In this document: piece after piece, positions 33,731 to 44,795 of the stretch
Position numbering within the stretch: position 1 is the first letter of the stretch
Layout: each line of letters starts with the position of its first letter
Sequence record: OZ346201.1
Source of the DNA: a phage
Length of the DNA: 64,000 nucleotides
Direction: 5' to 3' (one strand)
The notes under the pieces: generated by a model
Databases searched by the model: none
What the model was told of the DNA's origin: nothing
Seen by the model: only the letters and a program-made list of their open reading frames with translations
Made by a program: the position numbers and the translations under genes

Positions 33731-34771
33731 ATGTCAAAACCTAGTTTTCCATTAGAGATTTGGGCAGAGGAGGATCAGGTTCTGCCTAACACCCACAGAC
33801 AGAACAGGCTACGCCCGATTGATGATTTGTGGAGAAAAGGTTGGGATCTTGGTCAAAAGCCCTCATGTGAAGAACTTAACTATATTTTCAATATGCTCGG
33901 GACTTGGGCAAAATACATCGCTGACGAGCAGATCCCCGCTCAAGAAGGCCGTTATCTGGTACGTGATAATAACTTGAGTGATCTTTTGAACATTCCTGTT
34001 GCCCGTAGAAACCTTGGGATTATTACTAAGGAAGAGGCAGACGCCAGGTATGTAAAAGTTACAGGTGATACAATGACAGGCCCATTGGGTTTGCAACGTA
34101 TCAACTTTAAAGCTGCCGAGTCAGATAAGGCTTGGATAGAGACAACTATTGGCCCAGATAAGACAACTCTCGACTTTGGGTTAAGTGATAATACCGGGTC
34201 GTTTGATGATGGTGGTACATCTACAGTGGATGCGTTCCGTTGGAGATTCCAGCCAACTCAGCCGGATATTAATCCAGAGTTCACTTTGATGTACCTTAAC
34301 GCGATCACGGCTAACCGTGCGCTGTTGAAAGTGGTAGGCAATGTTGAAGTTGTCGATAACATGAGGTGCAATAACCTTACTATCAGCAATACAGCGACAT
34401 TCACCAACTGTAATGTGGCTAGTCAGTTGACGGCTGGGTCAGTGTATGTTAATGGTGGTGCAAGTTGTGACAGTATGGTTGTAAGAAGCCAGCACTGTGT
34501 TGTCGGTAACAGAAATGTGGTTCGCTCTGTGAACGGAGTGACGGCTAACGGTAACGGTGATGTAACGATCACTATCCCGCAGACAGGTGTGCAAGACATC
34601 AGAATCGGTGCAAGACTTGTGGACGGAGTTTCTGAATCTCCAATCCGCAACGGCTACGTTGTCACAGGCTGGCATTTCGGTGACAAAAAAGAGATGCGTG
34701 GTTCAACCTACTGGGCAGGACCTTTACAAAAACTTGTAAATGGTCAATGGATCACTGTTAATTATGCATAG
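33731..34771 (+). CDS. tail fibre protein (cassette A)
   Basis: 346 aa; N- and C-termini paralogous to the 35786..36829 product (C-terminal ...QKLVNGQWIT(V/I)xYA); followed by a Tfa-like gene. Confidence 0.55.
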   Translation: MSKPSFPLEIWAEEDQVLPNTHRQNRLRPIDDLWRKGWDLGQKPSCEELNYIFNMLGTWAKYIADEQIPAQEGRYLVRDNNLSDLLNIPVARRNLGIITKEEADARYVKVTGDTMTGPLGLQRINFKAAESDKAWIETTIGPDKTTLDFGLSDNTGSFDDGGTSTVDAFRWRFQPTQPDINPEFTLMYLNAITANRALLKVVGNVEVVDNMRCNNLTISNTATFTNCNVASQLTAGSVYVNGGASCDSMVVRSQHCVVGNRNVVRSVNGVTANGNGDVTITIPQTGVQDIRIGARLVDGVSESPIRNGYVVTGWHFGDKKEMRGSTYWAGPLQKLVNGQWITVNYA

Positions 34772-35755: not shown

Positions 35756-35785
35756 AGTCCTAAGGAATTTTCTCAGGAGAACGTG

Positions 35786-36829
35786 ATGACTAAACCAGTT
35801 ATCCCTCTTGATATTTGGGCCAATCAGGATGTTGTGCTTGAAAATACGGGAGAGTTGAATAAGTCTCAACCAAAAAAAGAAGAGAGATTGAAAGGTTGGG
35901 ATATGACACAAAGAGTGGCATGTGAAGTTGTTAACTTTGAACTTCACATGCTTTCTGCGTGGTTGAAGCATTTAACAGAAGATGTTGTCCCAGGATGGGA
36001 TAATAGATTCTTAAGGGTCACTAATAATCTAGCAGACGTTCCAGACAAAGCTGCTGCACGTCAAGTTCTCAATGTATACTCACCTGAAGAAATGGACGAT
36101 CTATATGTTGACAAGTCTGGAGACATAATGACTCAGACTCAAACTTTAGGTCTTCAAAGAATCGAGTTTGCATCTGCGTCAACAGACAGTGCGGCAATAT
36201 ATACCACCATAACTCCAGACAAGACGACGATGGATTTCTGGATTATGGACAACATCGGTGGTGCTGACGGCACAGACCTTGATGATCCTTCTCACCAAAT
36301 AGATGGGTTCCGTTGGAGATTTCAACCTTCTGGTGGGCAGCCTGTGTTTTCAGCTATGAAGCTCAATGCTATAACTGCCAACCGTGCAAGACTGGCTATC
36401 CAAGGAAATCTTGAATGCAACGATGCAAAAAGTTCCTCTGCAAATGCCAATGCGGTCACGATACCAAGAGCCACTGTTAATGGACAACAATCCTGCGGAA
36501 GCGCTCAAATAGGTGGAAGAGTTGATTGTAACGATGAAACCGTCAGGGGCCAATATGCAACAGTTGGTGGAAGAAACGTGGTCCGCAGGGTAAATGGTAA
36601 CGGCGCAGACAGTAGTGGTAACCTTACTATTCCTATGCCTAGCAGAGGGGTTGATGATGTAAGGATAGCAAACCGTTTCAAAACCACCTACAGAGAGTCA
36701 AGAGTCTACCCTGGACATGTGATGTGCTCTGGTAACTACGCTTATAAACACCCTTATCAAGGTGATTACTGGACAGGTGCTATCCAAAAACTTGTAAATG
36801 GTCAATGGATCACTATATCTTATGCTTAA
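35786..36829 (+). CDS. tail fibre protein (cassette B, paralogue of cassette A)
   Basis: Track ORF starts at GTG 35783; ATG 35786 after AGGAGA. Shares N-terminal 65 aa and C-terminal 20 aa with cassette A, divergent centre. Confidence 0.55.
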   Translation: MTKPVIPLDIWANQDVVLENTGELNKSQPKKEERLKGWDMTQRVACEVVNFELHMLSAWLKHLTEDVVPGWDNRFLRVTNNLADVPDKAAARQVLNVYSPEEMDDLYVDKSGDIMTQTQTLGLQRIEFASASTDSAAIYTTITPDKTTMDFWIMDNIGGADGTDLDDPSHQIDGFRWRFQPSGGQPVFSAMKLNAITANRARLAIQGNLECNDAKSSSANANAVTIPRATVNGQQSCGSAQIGGRVDCNDETVRGQYATVGGRNVVRRVNGNGADSSGNLTIPMPSRGVDDVRIANRFKTTYRESRVYPGHVMCSGNYAYKHPYQGDYWTGAIQKLVNGQWITISYA

Positions 36830-36840
36830 AAAGAGGGTAA

Positions 36841-37107
36841 ATGAAACTAACTCAGTTTTTATGGGGACTGGTTGCGGCATCTGATGACCCTACGAAAGTA
36901 TCCCAAACTAAGCTATGGTCGAACATAGGCATGGCGGTGATGACTGGGGTGTTTATTCATATGGGGTATAATGATACGCTTCCTGAATGGTATGCGTGGA
37001 TATACGCGCCTTCAGTAGCTTGCCCCCAGCTTATTAGCAAATTCATCTCGCTCCGGTGGGGTTGCCAGCACCCTGACCACGTTAAAAACGAAGAGCAAAA
37101 AGCTTAA
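36841..37107 (+). CDS. small hydrophobic protein (holin-like candidate)
   Basis: 88 aa with two hydrophobic stretches and a charged C-terminus (HVKNEEQKA); RBS AGAGGG. Confidence 0.3.
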   Translation: MKLTQFLWGLVAASDDPTKVSQTKLWSNIGMAVMTGVFIHMGYNDTLPEWYAWIYAPSVACPQLISKFISLRWGCQHPDHVKNEEQKA

Positions 37108-37116
37108 GGAGAAATC

Positions 37117-38862
37117 ATGGCGCAAGACATGACAAGCTTTGAGCAGGCGGTAGATCAAGTAATTGTTGATTCTGAACGTTTGCACCTGATTGTCAACGGT
37201 AACGCTGTGGATGAAGTTGTCGTAGAGGATGGGACCACCATCCCTACGGTACGAAAAGCCATGCTTGACACCCTTTATTTTAAAACGCCACCGATCCCTT
37301 GGGCGTATGGTGCATCCACAACAGTTTTTAACCAGCTGTACGAGTTTAAAGGGGACACAGGCCCTCAGTGGTGGTACGCTCCCGCAGCATCAAAATCTAA
37401 CCCGGTTAGAATGCCAGCAGATCCTTCACAATCTCCAAACTGGAGATTATATACCGATTCTGCAGTAATGGCAAAATACTACGCAAAACTTAACAGTCCG
37501 AGGTTCGAAGGTGACCCGCGAGTACCTACGCCTCCAATGGACGACAAATCCGAGTCTATAGCAAACACAGAGTTTGTTGTTGACTATGTGGATAGCATAT
37601 TTGAAGCCATGGAGGGAATGAAAGTTACTGTAGGGTCTTTGGTGGTAAAAGGTCTTACAGAACTTGCTAACACTATAGTTGGTGGCACACTCACCTTACA
37701 TGGGCCTGTTAATGGAGCAGATTCTACTGCACGCTTCAGGAACCTAATCCTCACGGCAAATACTTCTACACTTACTTTTGCGTGGAGTGATCCTAAGCAT
37801 GCAGACTGGAGAAGCACAGAGCTGCAACCTCATGAAGTGTCCACCCACAGGGTTATAGCTGACACTATAACTTCTGGGAAACCAGTGGCTAATAATAACG
37901 ATGTGCATTTTGATGGTCTAGGTAATAACTTTTTTGACTACGTGTACATTCGTGGTAATGCCATGAAGGCAGCAACCGAACCGACATTGCAGGTAGATGG
38001 AACCACCAGGGTTAAGAACCTTGAGGTGACAGGCACTGTTACAGGGATAACATACTCTGTCGATGGCACCATGATCTACCCTAGCTATATTGAAAGCACG
38101 GGTGATGCATTGATAAATGGCGATTTGGAGGTTGGCGGGTCTGTAGTTATTCGAGGTACAGCCTCTATCCAAAATATAGCTCTGAATACTCTAAGAGTCA
38201 ATGAGCGTGCAACTTTTGAAGGAGAAGGGCTTACAGCCAATAAAGGTACAATTACCGAGCTGACCACCACCACTTTAACTGCAACAACTGCAAACTCTGA
38301 AAACTGCAACATTACCAGAAACTTGCAGGTAAATGGAGATGTTAGTTTAAACGCCGCAGGGACTGGCACCACCTACCTTCACAATCTTGAAATATCCGGC
38401 ACAGTGACCGGATGGCTGCCAGACTTCTCTAATGTCAACTTTGTCTGTAATGGCATTAACTCCAGTGGTAAGATAACCACCTCTCAAGAAATTGAGGCTG
38501 GTAAAACCATCACTGCCCCTACTTTCCACGCAGGAAAGGTAGATTTTGACTTAGAGGAGGTTGACGCGTCCAGTGGGACATGGACACCTAACGGGCAGGC
38601 CAGTATGTATGTTGTCCACGCTAAAGGGGATTTTACAATAGGTCAGTGGCCTGGGACATCAGCGGAAGATAAACCTTATCCATTCACTGCAGTTATCTAT
38701 GTCATTCAGGATGCTGTAGGTCACAACGTGACTTTGCACGATAAGTATGCTATCCTGTCGGCAACACCTGTTATTAACAACAGGGCTAACAGTGTTACCT
38801 TGCTGCAATTAACGTATTGTGGTGTTGGTGATATTGTAGACGTAGTAATTGCACAACGTTAA
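37117..38862 (+). CDS. tail fibre protein
   Basis: 581 aa, RBS AAGGAGA; Thr/Gly/Asn-rich beta-type repeats (LEVTGTVTGITYSVDGT..., TITELTTTTLTATTANSENCNIT...). Confidence 0.5.
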   Translation: MAQDMTSFEQAVDQVIVDSERLHLIVNGNAVDEVVVEDGTTIPTVRKAMLDTLYFKTPPIPWAYGASTTVFNQLYEFKGDTGPQWWYAPAASKSNPVRMPADPSQSPNWRLYTDSAVMAKYYAKLNSPRFEGDPRVPTPPMDDKSESIANTEFVVDYVDSIFEAMEGMKVTVGSLVVKGLTELANTIVGGTLTLHGPVNGADSTARFRNLILTANTSTLTFAWSDPKHADWRSTELQPHEVSTHRVIADTITSGKPVANNNDVHFDGLGNNFFDYVYIRGNAMKAATEPTLQVDGTTRVKNLEVTGTVTGITYSVDGTMIYPSYIESTGDALINGDLEVGGSVVIRGTASIQNIALNTLRVNERATFEGEGLTANKGTITELTTTTLTATTANSENCNITRNLQVNGDVSLNAAGTGTTYLHNLEISGTVTGWLPDFSNVNFVCNGINSSGKITTSQEIEAGKTITAPTFHAGKVDFDLEEVDASSGTWTPNGQASMYVVHAKGDFTIGQWPGTSAEDKPYPFTAVIYVIQDAVGHNVTLHDKYAILSATPVINNRANSVTLLQLTYCGVGDIVDVVIAQR

Positions 38863-38869
38863 TATATCT

Positions 38870-38898
38870 AACCGCTCCTGACGGGGCGGTTTTCTTAT
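38870..38898 (+). terminator. intrinsic terminator
   Basis: AACCGCTCC-TGAC-GGGGCGGTT followed by TTTCTTAT. Confidence 0.5.
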
Positions 38899-38910
38899 CT
38901 GGAGAACACA

Positions 38911-41900
38911 ATGCTTCCAATCCCTTTGCTAAAACTTGGTCGTCATTTCCTCGATAAGAGGGGTGGAATTAAGGAACTTGCTGTTCTGTCATACCCAATA
39001 GACAACAGTGATGGTACAAGCAACACAGTATCCTATGTAAATAGCTTGGCTATACTTTTTGATGATGGTCAGCTTAATATTACGGGCTATAACAAGTTCG
39101 GGGAGTGTCGCACTGGGGATCGTAACCCTATAAACTACCCAAGCGAAACAGCCTGGAATGTTGATCATGTGTGGAGAGCAGACCGTGCGTTTGTGATCCG
39201 GACTTTTGATAACCAGTTTTTCTACATCGGCTGCACTGCAGGTCTTATCGGATCCACTGCGGCAGGCGGTAATGATGTTTGCGTAAACGAGTGGACACCT
39301 CTTCCGGAACAGATTGTTAAAGGGTTGCACCTTGACACCCACCCAGAGCGCCTTATTGAGGTGATGGGTGGTATTAACAACACTGTCTGGGTTATTGCAG
39401 AGGCAGAAGGCACTGGCATACTTAAACTATATGGATCTGGTAACAACACCTACGGATCTTTGCATGTAGATAAAAATCAGCATGCAACCCCTGTAAAGAT
39501 TGGTGAGACATCGGAAAATCCGGAAACAGGTCCTTGGAAAAACCCAAGCATCAACTGCGAGGTGCATGACAACTCTGTTATTTTCGGTGGTCCTAGAGGC
39601 TTCTGGATTGCTGGATACGACTTTCTAAGAAATAACAGTAGAAACGACCTTGTTTGGCCTCCTGTGCAGATTACTCGTAACGATTTGAGGGGCATTCCTG
39701 CAGATGAAGAGTGGAAAGGGTTTATGTGCGGTCCTAACGGGGCAATAATTGCCACACAGAGGATGCACAAACCAAATGACCAGCAGCTTGTTAACGTATT
39801 CTACGGGCAAGACGTTTGGGGAGATGACACGTGGCGTTCCTTAAATATCACCTACACCCATGAGGTGATAATGGCTCGTGGATACGGCACAAGTGGCATT
39901 TTCTTCAATAATGGCACTAAACAGTATCGTGGATTCTCTCGCAACTTGTGTAATGATATTGGTGCACAATCTGCAAACAATAGCCCTAGGGCTAATTTTA
40001 TCCACTATCAGGCTCTTGCTACAGCTAAATATGTTGAGCAACGCCTGCCAGTTAGCTGGACAGAGAGTGTTTATTTCCAAGGCATCCACAGGGAAGGTTT
40101 CTTAGGAACCTTTACTGTTGTTAATGGCAAACTTTGGTGGTCAGGCATCCCAAGGGGGAGTTTTGCAGGATCTAACAACCTCTTTGGCGGCAGACTTAAC
40201 AGCCAAGGGTTCACAGAGATTCCGGAGAATTGGTATAAAAATGTCCCGGTAGATAGCTGGGGTATCGAAGACATCTTTGATGTCAATGGTGTGAGCAATG
40301 TTAGCAACATTTACATCGGAGATACTGTCAAGATGAAATTGAAACCTCAGCCGGAGGGTGCTACGTTCATTATTGACAAGATTGAGTTGGTAAATGCTGC
40401 AGGCACTGTTGTTACAGATGCAAACTATCAGTTCTCCACTAACTGGAACCATGGTGGTGCTAACGAAGTTGTGGTCACCCAGTATAACCGTAACATCAAC
40501 AGACGTGGTTTGTATTCTATCAAGATCACCTACCATGACAAGCATGGCACTGGAAGAACCTATACGACAAGAACTTTGAACTGGAACACTATAGTTCCTG
40601 CGTATCCGTCCAACGGCAAGTGGCATACCGTTGGTAGAAACAAGCAGTTCCATGTTAACGATACTGTATACTTTGGGCTGAATGGGACCCAGCCTGCAGT
40701 AGAAGGGGATACATCGTATATGGTCAGACTCCACAGAATGGATGCTGGATCAGTCACTTATGATGTGACCCAAGAGATCTACGATCAAAGACGTGCCACG
40801 TATGACAATATTGTAAAAACACAAGCCTTGTGGGAGTTCAATCCTAATGGCAAGGGTGGTAAAATGTTGCAGGTTAATGAGCAGAACGGAACGTCGTTGA
40901 CTGTTCACGAACACCCAGACCCTTGGCCTGATCCTGGAAAACCTCGCCCGGGAGCTCGTACACTGAAAATTGTCAGCCATGATGCAGGATATTTCGGAAT
41001 ACGCTGGGAAGCTACAGTAAGATATGTCGACGGGACAACAAACAACATAGGGATTACACTTGGCGGCACTAGTGAAGATAACTCGCTGAAAATTGCCTAC
41101 ACGCCCAGAGGTATCTCTATTGATAGTATGGATGTTGTTCGCAATGGCTACGGCGATGTGAATGTCAAAGTTACTCTTGGCGAACATCTTGGTGGGGAAA
41201 GGATCATCATGTATACCTTTGATCATGATCCACGCACCAATGGAACTTATGCAAATCAGGCATGGAGTTACCTGATAAATGCACCTGAGCCGAATACTAA
41301 AGAGTTCTACTATGGTATGAAGCGAGATGTGTGCAAGAAAACAGGAACACATGACTGGATTGCTATCTGCGTTAAAGATGAGCGCACAGCTTGGGATGAG
41401 CCTGTTAACAGATGGTTCATAGGTATTCCTACCAGAAGTGATAAGTATGTCGCAGAATATATTGTATGCATGGGCGGTACCAACCTAAACATGTGTTGGA
41501 ACGAAGATGTAAACAAATACTCTGATTATGACTATATGAGGGATTACTCTTGTAATTTGTGGTTTAACCAAACTACAGGTTACCCTCCAAGACAGGCGAG
41601 AGTAAACCCTGCAATCTTCACAGACACGCAGGTTTTCTTGACAAAACAGGCCAACGAGGTTCAGACCTTCAAGAATAAATACGCTCCTAACAAGTGGTTC
41701 TACAACTGTTACGGCGCATTTTTCTGGGGACCTGGTGAGTTACCTGGTGGGGGATCTTGCTTGAATGAGGCAACTTACGCAAGTGACTACATCATGGGGC
41801 AGGTCAAGAAGTATAAGATAATCCCCGGTCCTGAGACTTTGGGCAATGCCGTTGACCCTTATATCATCATGACTGCACTGAGATCAAACATGGATGGGAC

Positions 41901-44547
41901 ATCCATGTCCATGCAAATTCCGGTAACAAACGGATACAAACGTGTTGTGATGATCATTAAGTGCGACCTGATAGGTAAACAAGTTCTTGCAGAAAACGGG
42001 ACATCCACACATCCTTTTGAGATCGCTCTGCACTATCAGTTTGCTGACTCACCTTTTGCAGGGGATAAGAGAATATCTGATACAGACGCACAGCGTTGTA
42101 AGAAAGTATTGTTGGGTGCAGGTTGGTGGTGGTATGAGTTTGATTTAACAGACAAATTCACCGACACGTCTAAAGTTGTAACAGGACTTCGTCTAGACCT
42201 TGGCGAGAACATGCACAAAGCTGTTTGTGATGGCACCTATGGTGACCCTACAATATACCTAAAATATGTTTCTTTTGAGCATCCGGAAGATGTTGTCTAC
42301 GGTCCAAAACTGAGATTGTTTGGCAGCTGGATTGCAAAAGATAGGGTAGGCATGGGTAAGAAGGTAAGAGGGCTCTTGGTTGATGCAGGAACAGAAGACA
42401 TGCTGGTTAATGCAGTGTGGCCTGAATTACCTGGGACTCAGTGGGACAACTCAGCCAAATCTATAAACTGGTTTAACATTCATAGGGCCATGTGGACCAC
42501 TAACTGCTACTTGTGGAGAGAGCTTAACGATCAGGCCTTTGGATTCAGCGATGGTAGAAGGATGGCGATCATTTGCTGGACAACACTGCAAAGATGTTAT
42601 GACCATGACTATGAGATTGGGGGCAGGGCATGGAAAAATATCAGGGATAGAATCATAACCAATTTTGCAGACGACAACGGTGGTGGAGCACATAACTTTG
42701 GCACAAGCCGACTCATCCATTTGAACGGATCCTCAGCCTACAAGAAAGAAGGTTACTCTGGGTCTATGATCGAGTGGGGTCTGGTGAAAGATGCTCGCGT
42801 ATTGATGGGCCAGCAACTTGCTGCCGCAATAGGTCCCAGCGCAGTGCAGTCGGTTAAACCAGCGTGGTTCGATATTCCATTGTGGTCACCCGGAACACCG
42901 GGAACTGCTGCAATCAACCCTACCACTGGGGATCTAGAAATCTCCTGGGAGGACTTGAAGCAGGTCGGTGGTTGGGACAAAACAGGGTACCAGGTTCAGT
43001 GGTGGAGAGCTGATGGATCTTTAGCTGCTGATGAGTTTGTTAAGGACAATTTCTACACTATGTCCTCTGCAAAAGCACAGCAATTATTTGGTCAGGCAAC
43101 TCCGTCAACGATCACCATGTCTATGTGCTGTAAAGACAACAGGACTGGAGCTTTGGGGCCAAGGGTTGCTAAAGTTTTCTCAGGTATTAAATGGAATCTA
43201 CCTGTCCAAAGTATTTCATGGAAGCAAATAGGTGATAACAAGCTGCTGGTTACCCCTGCCTGTCAGTTCAACGCAACTCTTAACGTTGATCCTGCTGTTG
43301 CGGCAAACTCAGCTAAAGCTTCTGACTTCTCTGTGTCTAACACTGCTATGGCAGATGTGAGGAAGATTGACACGCTGAACGCCAGAATTACCTGTAAAAA
43401 CACTTATGGCACATTCCAGATCATCAACAACTTCACAGATGCTGATTCTAAGGTAGTGAGGACAGCAAGCCAGACTTTGAGTTTAGGAACTCTGGCCTAT
43501 GCGGCCCTAATCACTGAACAGTCGGCAACACTCCAAGGAGGTGGTGTAGGCAAGTCCATTACAACACCTGTGTGGAAGCCAAATGAGTGGGTTGTGTTTG
43601 ATTTGACTGTGGACTTCTCCAGCGATAATAACTGGACATGGGTAAGGAATTGTTTGTCACAGTTGATGGGCGGTCCAAGCTCCGTTAGTGATAGTCACGA
43701 CTCTACTGACCCGAGTGTGTTCCAGGTAGGTAAAACTCACCCAGAGACTGGAGAAACGTTGCCTGACAGGAAGTATGCTTTGGTTTGCATCTCTTACGGG
43801 AAGGCAGATGTCACCTTCTCAGGGACACACACTTATAACGGAACCTACAACTTCTCAAGGAAGTATAGTCTCAAAGCAGGGAACATTATAGACGAGGTTG
43901 GTGTGCTGTATAATCCGGGCAACGGCATAGGGATTGTTGGTGGTAAACTGCAGATGCAGGAACCTTCTATTACCCCTTCCAACGTATCCGGGATTAGAAA
44001 GACTTGGGAAAGTAGTAATACCAACATTGCAACAGTGGATGCCACCACAGGACTGGTAACATTTAAAGCTACTGGGAATGTCACCATAAAGTTTGTAGTT
44101 ACAGATGATGCAGGGCGCAAAACGTCTTCAACATCTTTTACTGTCAAACAGATGGCACCACAGTGGAGAATGTGGATAGGTACAGCAACAAACGGGGCAT
44201 ACCCTAATCCGGCAGGTACTTCTGGTATGAAGACTTTCTCTACAAGCAAACCGATGGAGTACGGCAGCGGTCCTAAGGTAGGGCAGATGGTGTACTTTGG
44301 TGCGTATATTCCTGAAATTATAGGGCTTCCGAGAAGTCAGCTTCAGTTGCTGTTTGGGGCTGGTGTTGACGATCTTGCCACTTTCGGGTATAGCGACAAC
44401 ATCGAGGCTGCAAGGAGTTCAGGATGGGTAGGGTTCAGAATGGAGTCTGGAAAGGAAGGCAGGATTCTAGGGACAGCCTCTATAGGTGTTATGTTCCCTG
44501 GTGACCAGCAGTATCGTCTAGAAGCCTACGCAACCTTTTCTCGTTAA
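38911..44547 (+). CDS. giant virion-associated multidomain protein (Ig-like and FN3-like domains)
   Basis: 1878 aa, RBS GGAGAA; C-terminal Big_2-like segment (SNVSGIRKTWESSNTNIATVDATTGLVTFKATGNVTIKFVVTDDAGRKTSSTSFTV); FN3-like region (PGTPGTAAINPTTGDLEISWEDL...GYQVQWW); last gene of the late block. Confidence 0.55.
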   Translation: MLPIPLLKLGRHFLDKRGGIKELAVLSYPIDNSDGTSNTVSYVNSLAILFDDGQLNITGYNKFGECRTGDRNPINYPSETAWNVDHVWRADRAFVIRTFDNQFFYIGCTAGLIGSTAAGGNDVCVNEWTPLPEQIVKGLHLDTHPERLIEVMGGINNTVWVIAEAEGTGILKLYGSGNNTYGSLHVDKNQHATPVKIGETSENPETGPWKNPSINCEVHDNSVIFGGPRGFWIAGYDFLRNNSRNDLVWPPVQITRNDLRGIPADEEWKGFMCGPNGAIIATQRMHKPNDQQLVNVFYGQDVWGDDTWRSLNITYTHEVIMARGYGTSGIFFNNGTKQYRGFSRNLCNDIGAQSANNSPRANFIHYQALATAKYVEQRLPVSWTESVYFQGIHREGFLGTFTVVNGKLWWSGIPRGSFAGSNNLFGGRLNSQGFTEIPENWYKNVPVDSWGIEDIFDVNGVSNVSNIYIGDTVKMKLKPQPEGATFIIDKIELVNAAGTVVTDANYQFSTNWNHGGANEVVVTQYNRNINRRGLYSIKITYHDKHGTGRTYTTRTLNWNTIVPAYPSNGKWHTVGRNKQFHVNDTVYFGLNGTQPAVEGDTSYMVRLHRMDAGSVTYDVTQEIYDQRRATYDNIVKTQALWEFNPNGKGGKMLQVNEQNGTSLTVHEHPDPWPDPGKPRPGARTLKIVSHDAGYFGIRWEATVRYVDGTTNNIGITLGGTSEDNSLKIAYTPRGISIDSMDVVRNGYGDVNVKVTLGEHLGGERIIMYTFDHDPRTNGTYANQAWSYLINAPEPNTKEFYYGMKRDVCKKTGTHDWIAICVKDERTAWDEPVNRWFIGIPTRSDKYVAEYIVCMGGTNLNMCWNEDVNKYSDYDYMRDYSCNLWFNQTTGYPPRQARVNPAIFTDTQVFLTKQANEVQTFKNKYAPNKWFYNCYGAFFWGPGELPGGGSCLNEATYASDYIMGQVKKYKIIPGPETLGNAVDPYIIMTALRSNMDGTSMSMQIPVTNGYKRVVMIIKCDLIGKQVLAENGTSTHPFEIALHYQFADSPFAGDKRISDTDAQRCKKVLLGAGWWWYEFDLTDKFTDTSKVVTGLRLDLGENMHKAVCDGTYGDPTIYLKYVSFEHPEDVVYGPKLRLFGSWIAKDRVGMGKKVRGLLVDAGTEDMLVNAVWPELPGTQWDNSAKSINWFNIHRAMWTTNCYLWRELNDQAFGFSDGRRMAIICWTTLQRCYDHDYEIGGRAWKNIRDRIITNFADDNGGGAHNFGTSRLIHLNGSSAYKKEGYSGSMIEWGLVKDARVLMGQQLAAAIGPSAVQSVKPAWFDIPLWSPGTPGTAAINPTTGDLEISWEDLKQVGGWDKTGYQVQWWRADGSLAADEFVKDNFYTMSSAKAQQLFGQATPSTITMSMCCKDNRTGALGPRVAKVFSGIKWNLPVQSISWKQIGDNKLLVTPACQFNATLNVDPAVAANSAKASDFSVSNTAMADVRKIDTLNARITCKNTYGTFQIINNFTDADSKVVRTASQTLSLGTLAYAALITEQSATLQGGGVGKSITTPVWKPNEWVVFDLTVDFSSDNNWTWVRNCLSQLMGGPSSVSDSHDSTDPSVFQVGKTHPETGETLPDRKYALVCISYGKADVTFSGTHTYNGTYNFSRKYSLKAGNIIDEVGVLYNPGNGIGIVGGKLQMQEPSITPSNVSGIRKTWESSNTNIATVDATTGLVTFKATGNVTIKFVVTDDAGRKTSSTSFTVKQMAPQWRMWIGTATNGAYPNPAGTSGMKTFSTSKPMEYGSGPKVGQMVYFGAYIPEIIGLPRSQLQLLFGAGVDDLATFGYSDNIEAARSSGWVGFRMESGKEGRILGTASIGVMFPGDQQYRLEAYATFSR

Positions 44548-44561
44548 CAAGGGGGTAAATA

Positions 44562-44592
44562 AAAAGGGGCCAAACGGCCCCTTTCTTTTTAT
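44562..44592. terminator. bidirectional intrinsic terminator between convergent blocks
   Basis: AGGGGCC-AAAC-GGCCCCT flanked by A-run on one side and T-run on the other, so it works on both strands. Confidence 0.65.
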
Positions 44593-44594
44593 AG

Positions 44595-44795
44595 TTAGTA
44601 ATACTCCCAACATGCCCCATCTTCAGACGGCTTGACGCGCTTACCTTTATGGTCAACATAGGTATAGCCACAACCTTCACAAATAACAGGTGCTGCATAG
44701 CCTTCCTTCCACTGATCCTCAGTGATCAATCCTTTCAGATCTCCGCAGTCACGACCAAACAACTCTTCAGAACAGTCTTTACAAAAATCAGCCAT
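44595..44795 (-). CDS. small zinc-ribbon protein
   Basis: 66 aa with CxxC(5-8)...CxxC pairs (CKDC...C; CEGC...C). Confidence 0.45.
   Translation of the reverse strand: MADFCKDCSEELFGRDCGDLKGLITEDQWKEGYAAPVICEGCGYTYVDHKGKRVKPSEDGACWEYY

Follow-up and report, generated by a model that had tools for sequence, protein, structure and literature searches.

An 1878-residue Ig-domain protein closing the tail-fibre cluster of a Vequintavirus, with a putative RCC1-like propeller and an orphan central region

Proteins with Ig-like domains are known as accessory components of phage virions: T4 Hoc, the C-terminal Ig domain of lambda gpV and the gp65 sheath of N4 are familiar cases. Here we analyse a gene whose likeliest function is probably of this kind. 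It lies at positions 38911-44547 (+ strand) of a 64,000-nucleotide stretch of phage DNA (sequence record OZ346201.1; "the window" denotes the whole of that stretch) and encodes a protein of 1878 residues. Compared with Hoc, the gpV domain and gp65 this protein is far larger, and it carries a putative N-terminal RCC1-like propeller and a large orphan region.

The closest described proteins are direct orthologues. The window comes from a Vequintavirus, an rV5-like myophage of E. coli. The DNA of the gene is ~97% identical to genes of Escherichia phages Murica, pangalan, nimi and CarlMeissner (Bas48), and the gene order of the window is that of Bas48 and Bas54: baseplate, several fibres, two paralogous short-tail-fibre genes, a glycosidase-type fibre and then the gene for the 1878-residue protein. 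DNA identity and shared gene order together define it as the orthologue of rV5 gp27, bas48_0041 and bas54_0041. These proteins are 1875–1878 residues long, share 94–99% protein identity and are likewise encoded by the last gene of the tail-fibre cluster; they show no substantive difference from the protein of the window and are themselves functionally uncharacterised. rV5 gp27 (1878 residues, 208,334 Da) was catalogued as "conserved hypothetical protein, Big_2" (PMC3606486, supplementary table 3). The orthology of bas54_0041, which has 1875 residues and occupies the same slot, was checked, and both it and bas48_0041 are annotated "lateral tail fiber protein with intimin domain"; elsewhere the annotations vary between hypothetical and Ig-like domain protein. 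PHROG 15684 (function unknown) aligns with the protein end to end.

Two published data sets bear on these orthologues. Multidimensional protein identification technology (MudPIT) on rV5 virions picked up gp27 by 3 peptides and 9 spectra at 3.1% coverage (PMC3606486, supplementary files 3 and 5), compared with 83–85% for the major capsid protein and the head decoration protein in the same study; the detection stands in supplementary file 5 and is undiscussed in the text. Virion association in orthologues is in this way weakly shown. A HIDEN-SEQ preprint on Bas54 places bas54_0041 among "bona fide tail fiber genes" that tolerate disruptive transposon insertions on E. coli K-12 (10.1101/2025.11.20.689424). 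Dispensability on K-12 is shown for the orthologue: neither virion assembly nor K-12 infection needs the protein. The K-12 primary receptor of these phages, given as the NGR glycan and in an earlier BASEL paper as enterobacterial common antigen (ECA), is attributed to a deacetylase-domain fibre of the rV5 gp34 / phi92 gp142 type (10.64898/2026.04.02.716166).

The gene is no discovery: more than 100 genomes list it, a virion proteome includes its product and a transposon screen has already struck it. What is new here is the RCC1-like N-terminus, a slot that crosses genera (202–1878 residues, with a common N-terminal peptide), a module resembling carbohydrate-binding modules (CBMs) and an orphan part of ~350 residues. 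From these we arrive, at roughly even chances, at a low-copy, non-essential, tail-attached accessory glycan adhesin rather than a load-bearing trimeric fibre. A tail-associated adhesin is favoured by the position at the cluster end, the conserved N-terminus, the variable C-terminus, domains of extracellular type and the detection in rV5 virions. A preliminary description of the gene, made from the sequence alone, had not noticed the known and widely deposited orthologue, its dispensability on K-12, the lack of trimeric-fibre hallmarks or the orphan nature of the central part.

A conserved N-terminus in a variable slot

Two features define the N-terminal part of the protein:

38911..38937, + strand: N-terminal peptide MLPIPLLKL; M1, P3, I4 and P5 invariant across genera
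38968..40245, + strand: putative RCC1-like repeat domain, residues ~20-445; the most conserved part of the protein

Direct searches did not reveal the second of these. RCC1 models gave no match to the 1878-residue protein at E≤1 in a Pfam scan, and an N-terminal profile built from rV5-type sequences alone had no PDB match at E≤10. Over residues 1-440 the AlphaFold2 (AF2) model has a predicted local distance difference test score (pLDDT) of 24–66, with the propeller not folded, and the Foldseek matches obtained from it are uninformative. Seven blade-like repeats are legible in residues 46-427, by eye only.

The evidence comes instead from homologues. A tblastn search of all phages confined full-length relatives to Vequintavirus, with residues 1-197 matching the last tail-module gene of other groups at 30–41% identity: Phapecoctavirus (ESCO5 gp226, 890 residues), Seunavirus (GAP31_232, 567 residues; SSE121; GEC_vB_MG; PVP-SE1 gp40) and other related phages. 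ESCO5 gp226 and GAP31_232 align to residues 1-197 and 393-440 and are collinear across the whole 1-445 region. Both pass PF00415 (24.2 and 32.7 bits against a cutoff of 21.7) and match PF25390 over residues 40-330 at 42.3 and 38.9 bits, below its cutoff of 150; in both, two Big_2 domains follow the RCC1-like part. When the N-termini of the rV5 and ESCO5 types were compared with hhalign they matched at 99.6% probability (E 1.3e-23, columns 1-186), and a joint profile of the two types matches only RCC1-type propellers in the PDB, with UVR8 first (1.2e-15), then HERC1, HERC2, RPGR and RCC2. Because the profile of rV5-type sequences alone matches nothing, the RCC1 call is transitive: well supported, and not a direct detection.

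Residues ~20-445 thus probably form a seven-bladed beta-propeller. With the RCC1 propellers (UVR8, HERC1/2, RPGR, RCC2; PF00415, PF25390) the region shares the match of the joint profile and, as read by eye, seven blade-like repeats; in contrast to them, its blades are strongly diverged and contain insertions. Of the earlier suggestion of a "beta-propeller or lectin-like" N-terminus, it is the propeller that finds support, as an RCC1-like domain reached via homologues, undetected by Pfam directly and unfolded by AF2.

There is no reason to expect a nucleotide-exchange or chromatin function of this domain. Proteins of the ESCO5/GAP31 type also match PHROGs labelled "regulator of chromosome condensation"; we reject a role in DNA condensation and regard these labels as a naming artefact of the RCC1 fold. 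In phage W70 (Vequintavirinae, Septuagintavirus) three RCC1-type (IPR009091) virion proteins were found by mass spectrometry and read as DNA-condensation factors (PMC11370258), which is probably the same artefact. RCC1-like proteins seem to recur in the virions of the Vequintavirinae.

The slot itself is occupied in related genera by proteins of 202 (phi92), 567 (GAP31) and 890 (ESCO5) residues, all with Big_2, and M1, P3, I4 and P5 are unchanged in every version. ESCO5 gp226, GAP31_232, PVP-SE1 gp40 and phi92 gp152 (PHROG 11922, "tail protein") resemble the 1878-residue protein in slot, M-x-P-I-P peptide and downstream Big_2 and, with the exception of phi92 gp152, in a homologous RCC1-like N-terminal domain (BLASTP 2e-28; hhalign 99.6%). 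They differ from it in length (202–890 residues) and in having no counterpart of the 836-1320 orphan region, the FN3-like segment or the C-terminal domain. In phi92 gp152 (L010:21321-21929; 202 residues) the first ~16 residues (MYPIPLF...) are joined directly to two Big_2 domains, a part that is 67% identical to residues 411-584 of ESCO5 gp226 (L002:9001-11673). The alignment marks gp152 as an RCC1+Ig protein that has lost its whole propeller by natural deletion. Since it keeps the peptide without the propeller, the short peptide, and not the propeller alone, may be part of the virion anchor; the comparison suggests M-x-P-I-P as a candidate anchor motif. The adjacent phi92 gene product, gp153, is unrelated.

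Within the family proper, which comprises 15 clusters at 90% identity, conservation follows a gradient. Identity declines from 70–80% in the propeller region to 15–40% in the last third. Word-indexed searches with the whole protein, the N-terminal 460 residues and the family alignment returned only the 15 same-family clusters and fragments. Metagenomic relatives of 52–58% identity share residues 1 to ~1430 and have a different C-terminus; one relative, 40% identical, extends over the full length and occupies the same syntenic slot. Vequintaviruses carry the last 289 residues in two allelic forms, of 95–100% and ~81% identity. Proteins that dock on a conserved particle and present variable binding modules usually show this pattern, a constant N-terminus followed by a body and tip that vary, and such an arrangement would fit here.

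Beta-sandwich domains and an orphan central region

The remainder of the protein is organized as follows:

40246..41415, + strand: several Ig-like beta-sandwiches, residues ~446-835; AF2 fairly confident at 445-565 and 735-840
41416..42870, + strand: conserved central region, residues ~836-1320; helix-rich, Trp/Cys-rich flanks at 836-968 and 1126-1320
41815..42285, + strand: CBM-like beta-jelly-roll, residues ~969-1125, inserted in the central region; pLDDT 65-84
42901..43137, + strand: FN3-like beta-sandwich, residues ~1331-1409; pLDDT 58-76
43198..44187, + strand: Ig-like domain region, residues ~1430-1759; AF2 pLDDT 80-93 at 1591-1759
43954-44109, + strand: Big_2 (PF02368), residues 1682-1733; Pfam 33.5 bits against a cutoff of 22.8
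44188..44544, + strand: C-terminal beta-rich domain, residues ~1760-1878, in the most variable third

AF2 was run on residues 1-840 and 830-1878 with alignments of 16–17 sequences, giving mean pLDDT values of 50.5 and 53.8. The models are poor overall and, as predictions, usable for the discrete beta-sandwich domains. Because the propeller and the helical central parts are unfolded in them, the fold searches speak for the sandwich domains only. Foldseek on the model of the N-terminal half matched only multi-sandwich proteins, and the predicted secondary structure consists of discrete sandwiches, the longest helix having 30 residues. Residues 969-1125 are modelled as a jelly roll that resembles known CBMs, with no sequence similarity to any CBM family (Pfam; central regions of the family members). 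At the C-terminal end, residues 1789-1869 form a beta-sandwich of moderate usability, and this last domain is a candidate distal ligand-binding tip.

The preliminary description had placed a Big_2-like domain near the C-terminus, and PF02368 is indeed found there, as the sole Pfam match in the protein. Its FN3-like segment corresponds to the moderate-confidence AF2 sandwich at 1331-1409; Pfam fn3 does not match the protein. It had also proposed domain-wise structure prediction and remote homology searches, which returned the sandwiches, the CBM-like jelly roll and the RCC1 link and left the propeller and residues 836-968 and 1126-1320 unfolded. Residues 1592-1877 match phrog_215.

The "intimin domain" of the BASEL annotation means only Big_2. 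Like intimin/invasin and the giant Ig-repeat adhesins (e.g. SiiE), the protein has sandwiches arranged as beads on a string, and its Big_2 domain resembles intimin D1/D2 (phmmer E 0.003); unlike intimin/invasin it has no beta-barrel anchor, LysM domain or C-type lectin tip. The sole NCBIfam match, intimin_all, scores 22.7 bits against a cutoff of 1400 and covers only 39 residues. We reject identity as an intimin homologue, the Big_2 domain being all that the two have in common.

Conservation in the central segments 836-968 and 1126-1320 is second only to that of the propeller, with many invariant Trp, Cys and charged motifs in the flanks, among them GTEDMLVN, NWFNxHRAMW, CWTxLxRCY and EGYxGSMIEWG. 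When residues 830-1320 were compared exhaustively by phmmer with 1.84 billion representative proteins, the protein's own family alone came back; the central-region family profile matched nothing in the PDB at E≤10, and the central region of each family member had no Pfam match at E≤10. AF2 left both segments unfolded (pLDDT 20-35). They make up ~350 conserved residues without detectable relatives that resist structure prediction.

What these residues do is the point at which the alternatives with most weight enter. One, unlikely though serious as an alternative or an addition to an adhesin, is that the central region (836-968, 1126-1320 and the CBM-like insert) is a new virion-borne domain that degrades or modifies glycans, another blade of the Vequintavirus "Swiss army knife", with the Ig-like domains as spacers. 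It builds on conservation and on the architecture of the insert: the region is the best conserved after the propeller, it has invariant acidic, His and Trp motifs, and its interruption by a CBM-like jelly roll is an arrangement common in carbohydrate-active enzymes; glycosidase and deacetylase domains also occur in neighbouring fibre genes. Set against this, the exhaustive phmmer, Pfam and PDB profile searches found no match to any enzyme family, no usable structure was obtained at a pLDDT of 20-35, and conservation alone is no proof of catalysis. A second possibility, which we likewise hold to be unlikely, is that the central segments represent a new fold with glycan-active or ligand-binding activity and that the protein is an undescribed monomeric giant "whisker" of ~2,000 residues, anchored by the M-x-P-I-P peptide and the RCC1-like propeller, and not a trimeric fibre.

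The gene, its flanking signals and its deposited copies

The gene and the signals around it are these:

38870..38891, + strand: intrinsic-terminator-like hairpin; 9-bp stem with 6 GC pairs, then TTTTCTTAT
38901..38904, + strand: Shine-Dalgarno GGAG, 6 nt 5' of the ATG, read directly from the sequence
38911..44547, + strand: coding sequence, 1878 aa, ATG start; orthologue of rV5 gp27 and bas48_0041/bas54_0041
44563..44584, no strand assigned: bidirectional-terminator-like hairpin with an A run and a T run at its sides; 9-bp stem with 6 GC pairs

The computed product has a mass of 208.5 kDa, a pI of 6.6, 25 Cys and 57 Trp. As the preliminary description had it, this is the largest gene of the window (the next open reading frames (ORFs) encode 1280 and 1272 residues), it closes the late module and it is flanked by terminators. 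It is the last gene of the tail-fibre cluster and of the long + strand block; the ORFs beyond run on the - strand, and the sign of the GC skew flips at ~44 kb, near the strand switch. The first hairpin follows the stop of the upstream fibre gene (38862) and precedes the ATG; the second separates the stop of the 1878-residue gene from the end of a convergent - strand gene (44595-44795). These two gaps hold the two top-scoring hairpins of a 10-kb scan, in which terminator-like sites as a whole are in no excess (9 against 8.2 in shuffles). The placement of the two is nonetheless informative, and the annotators of phage Alma independently put terminators at both equivalent sites (OV101294.1). From the first hairpin to the ATG there are only 19 nt, which leaves no space for a promoter before the gene.

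DNA matches to the gene were found in 121 deposited records, nearly all from Vequintavirus. The full-length records listed have 91–99% protein identity, and the 5.6-kb ORF is intact in ~100 genomes. Frameshifts split the gene in Alma, ime, naswa, magaca and APECc02, and the last four records and V18 annotate it as two to three pieces; behind this could lie either errors of sequencing or the genuine loss of a gene that is dispensable. Alma (OV101294.1) has a single 1-nt deletion, at the equivalent of window position 39531, that gives two coding sequences; no long homopolymer is present there. Fifteen "Campylobacter phage" records (MG0656xx, host C. jejuni) are ~95% identical to the gene over its full length, which points to wrongly assigned hosts or to contamination of that data set by coliphages. 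For a cluster 96% identical to the protein a precomputed listing gives PF26918.1.

Further upstream, a chaperone-like gene and a small ORF stand between the paralogous short-tail-fibre genes (33731-34771 and 35783-36829, 346 and 348 residues, both phrog_4465). A predicted membrane protein of 88 residues (36841-37107, phrog_1322) is embedded in the fibre cluster. The fibre gene immediately upstream (37117-38862, 581 residues) has in a metagenomic relative a counterpart that carries the Pfam domains Phage_phiTE_241_N and _C, named after a protein of phage phiTE.

Likely function and significance

The accessory glycan adhesin that we favour would work as follows. The M-x-P-I-P peptide and the RCC1-like propeller would dock the protein on the particle, at the tail or the baseplate periphery, and the chain of Ig-like, FN3-like and CBM-like sandwiches would project outward like beads on a string. 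The orphan central region and the variable C-terminal Ig and tip domains may then contact glycans of the host surface or of the environment (mucus, exopolysaccharide), and such contact could make adsorption more efficient or extend the host range in natural settings. The auxiliary adhesin is probably monomeric. The upstream terminator, with no room for a promoter behind it, would keep expression low, which would fit the low abundance in virions.

Several points weigh against this proposal. The location of the protein on the particle is a prediction, and the weak mass-spectrometry signal of rV5 gp27 could be carry-over. The cryo-EM reports on Bas49/Bas54 (in its available part; PMC12143355) and phi92 (PMC13450770) assign no density to the slot protein, which is likewise not assigned in the papers on phiTE and RBPseg. 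Glycan binding is deduced from fold classes only, and folds of the Ig-like and jelly-roll kind are generic; the quality of the AF2 models is poor overall (mean pLDDT 50-54); and that the N-terminal peptide and the propeller act as an anchor follows from the logic of conservation alone. Finally, the two most conserved central segments may have an enzymatic or an entirely different function.

The earlier description had allowed for an adhesin-like fibre, a capsid or tail decoration protein, or an ejected internal protein. Of these the tail-associated, adhesin-like character stands. An ejected internal protein is unlikely because of the extracellular-type domains and the 25 Cys, and is rejected; capsid decoration is unlikely too, for reasons given below.

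The BASEL annotation implies a classical trimeric lateral tail fibre subunit, part of one of the three lateral fibre sets of the Vequintavirinae and a primary receptor binder on some hosts. We consider this quite unlikely. The gene does lie in the tail-fibre cluster under the name "lateral tail fiber protein with intimin domain", its conservation declines from N to C as in receptor-binding proteins, and some lateral fibre genes, whose names the available part of the HIDEN-SEQ preprint does not give, are reported there to be conditionally essential on clinical isolates (10.1101/2025.11.20.689424). However, modules of the coiled-coil, beta-helix, collar or S74 chaperone type are absent from the Pfam and PHROG matches, in contrast to the neighbouring fibre genes; in the AF2 models several parts are separate, monomeric Ig-like sandwiches; and the N-terminus is, on the evidence above, an RCC1-like propeller and not a known trimeric adaptor. 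Density was seen for only 3 of the 9 annotated fibres in the Bas49/Bas54 cryo-EM study, the available part of which does not mention the slot protein (PMC12143355), and for a 208-kDa protein in 18 copies the abundance by mass spectrometry is very low.

A head or neck decoration in the manner of T4 Hoc, with Ig-like domains displayed on the capsid to bind mucus or cell-surface glycans, appears very unlikely, given the position of the gene and its very low abundance by mass spectrometry. In its favour, the C-terminal 290 residues match phrog_215, a "structural protein with Ig domain" filed under head and packaging, and the BFVD neighbours include a Hoc-like outer capsid protein. Yet the gene stands at the end of the tail-fibre cluster and not in the head module, the abundant head decoration protein of rV5, gp61, reached 85% coverage against the 3.1% of gp27, and the phrog_215 similarity is confined to generic Big_2 domains. 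That the gene is decaying or non-structural, its detection by mass spectrometry being contamination, is scarcely credible: dispensability on K-12, the frameshift-split copies in several deposited genomes and the 202-residue remnant in the phi92 slot would suit it, but the intact ORF across ~100 genomes, at 91–99% identity in the full-length records listed, and the many invariant residues kept by metagenomic relatives of 40–58% identity indicate strong purifying selection, and the peptides were found in CsCl-type virion preparations.

Phages of the rV5 type, which are considered for therapy and biocontrol, rank among the coliphages isolated most often and with the widest host ranges. They carry roughly nine "fibre" genes whose division of labour is still largely obscure, and the gene described here occupies ~4% of the genome. 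That it is strongly conserved and intact, yet dispensable on K-12, points to a role visible only in natural settings: other hosts, capsules or mucus. For experiments, and for the engineering of receptor-binding proteins, the accessory adhesin proposed here offers handles in its probably non-trimeric nature, an RCC1-like N-terminal module that crosses genera and a conserved central region without relatives. Its importance would rise should the orphan region turn out to have a new fold or to be an enzyme, or should the protein define a class of non-trimeric appendage.

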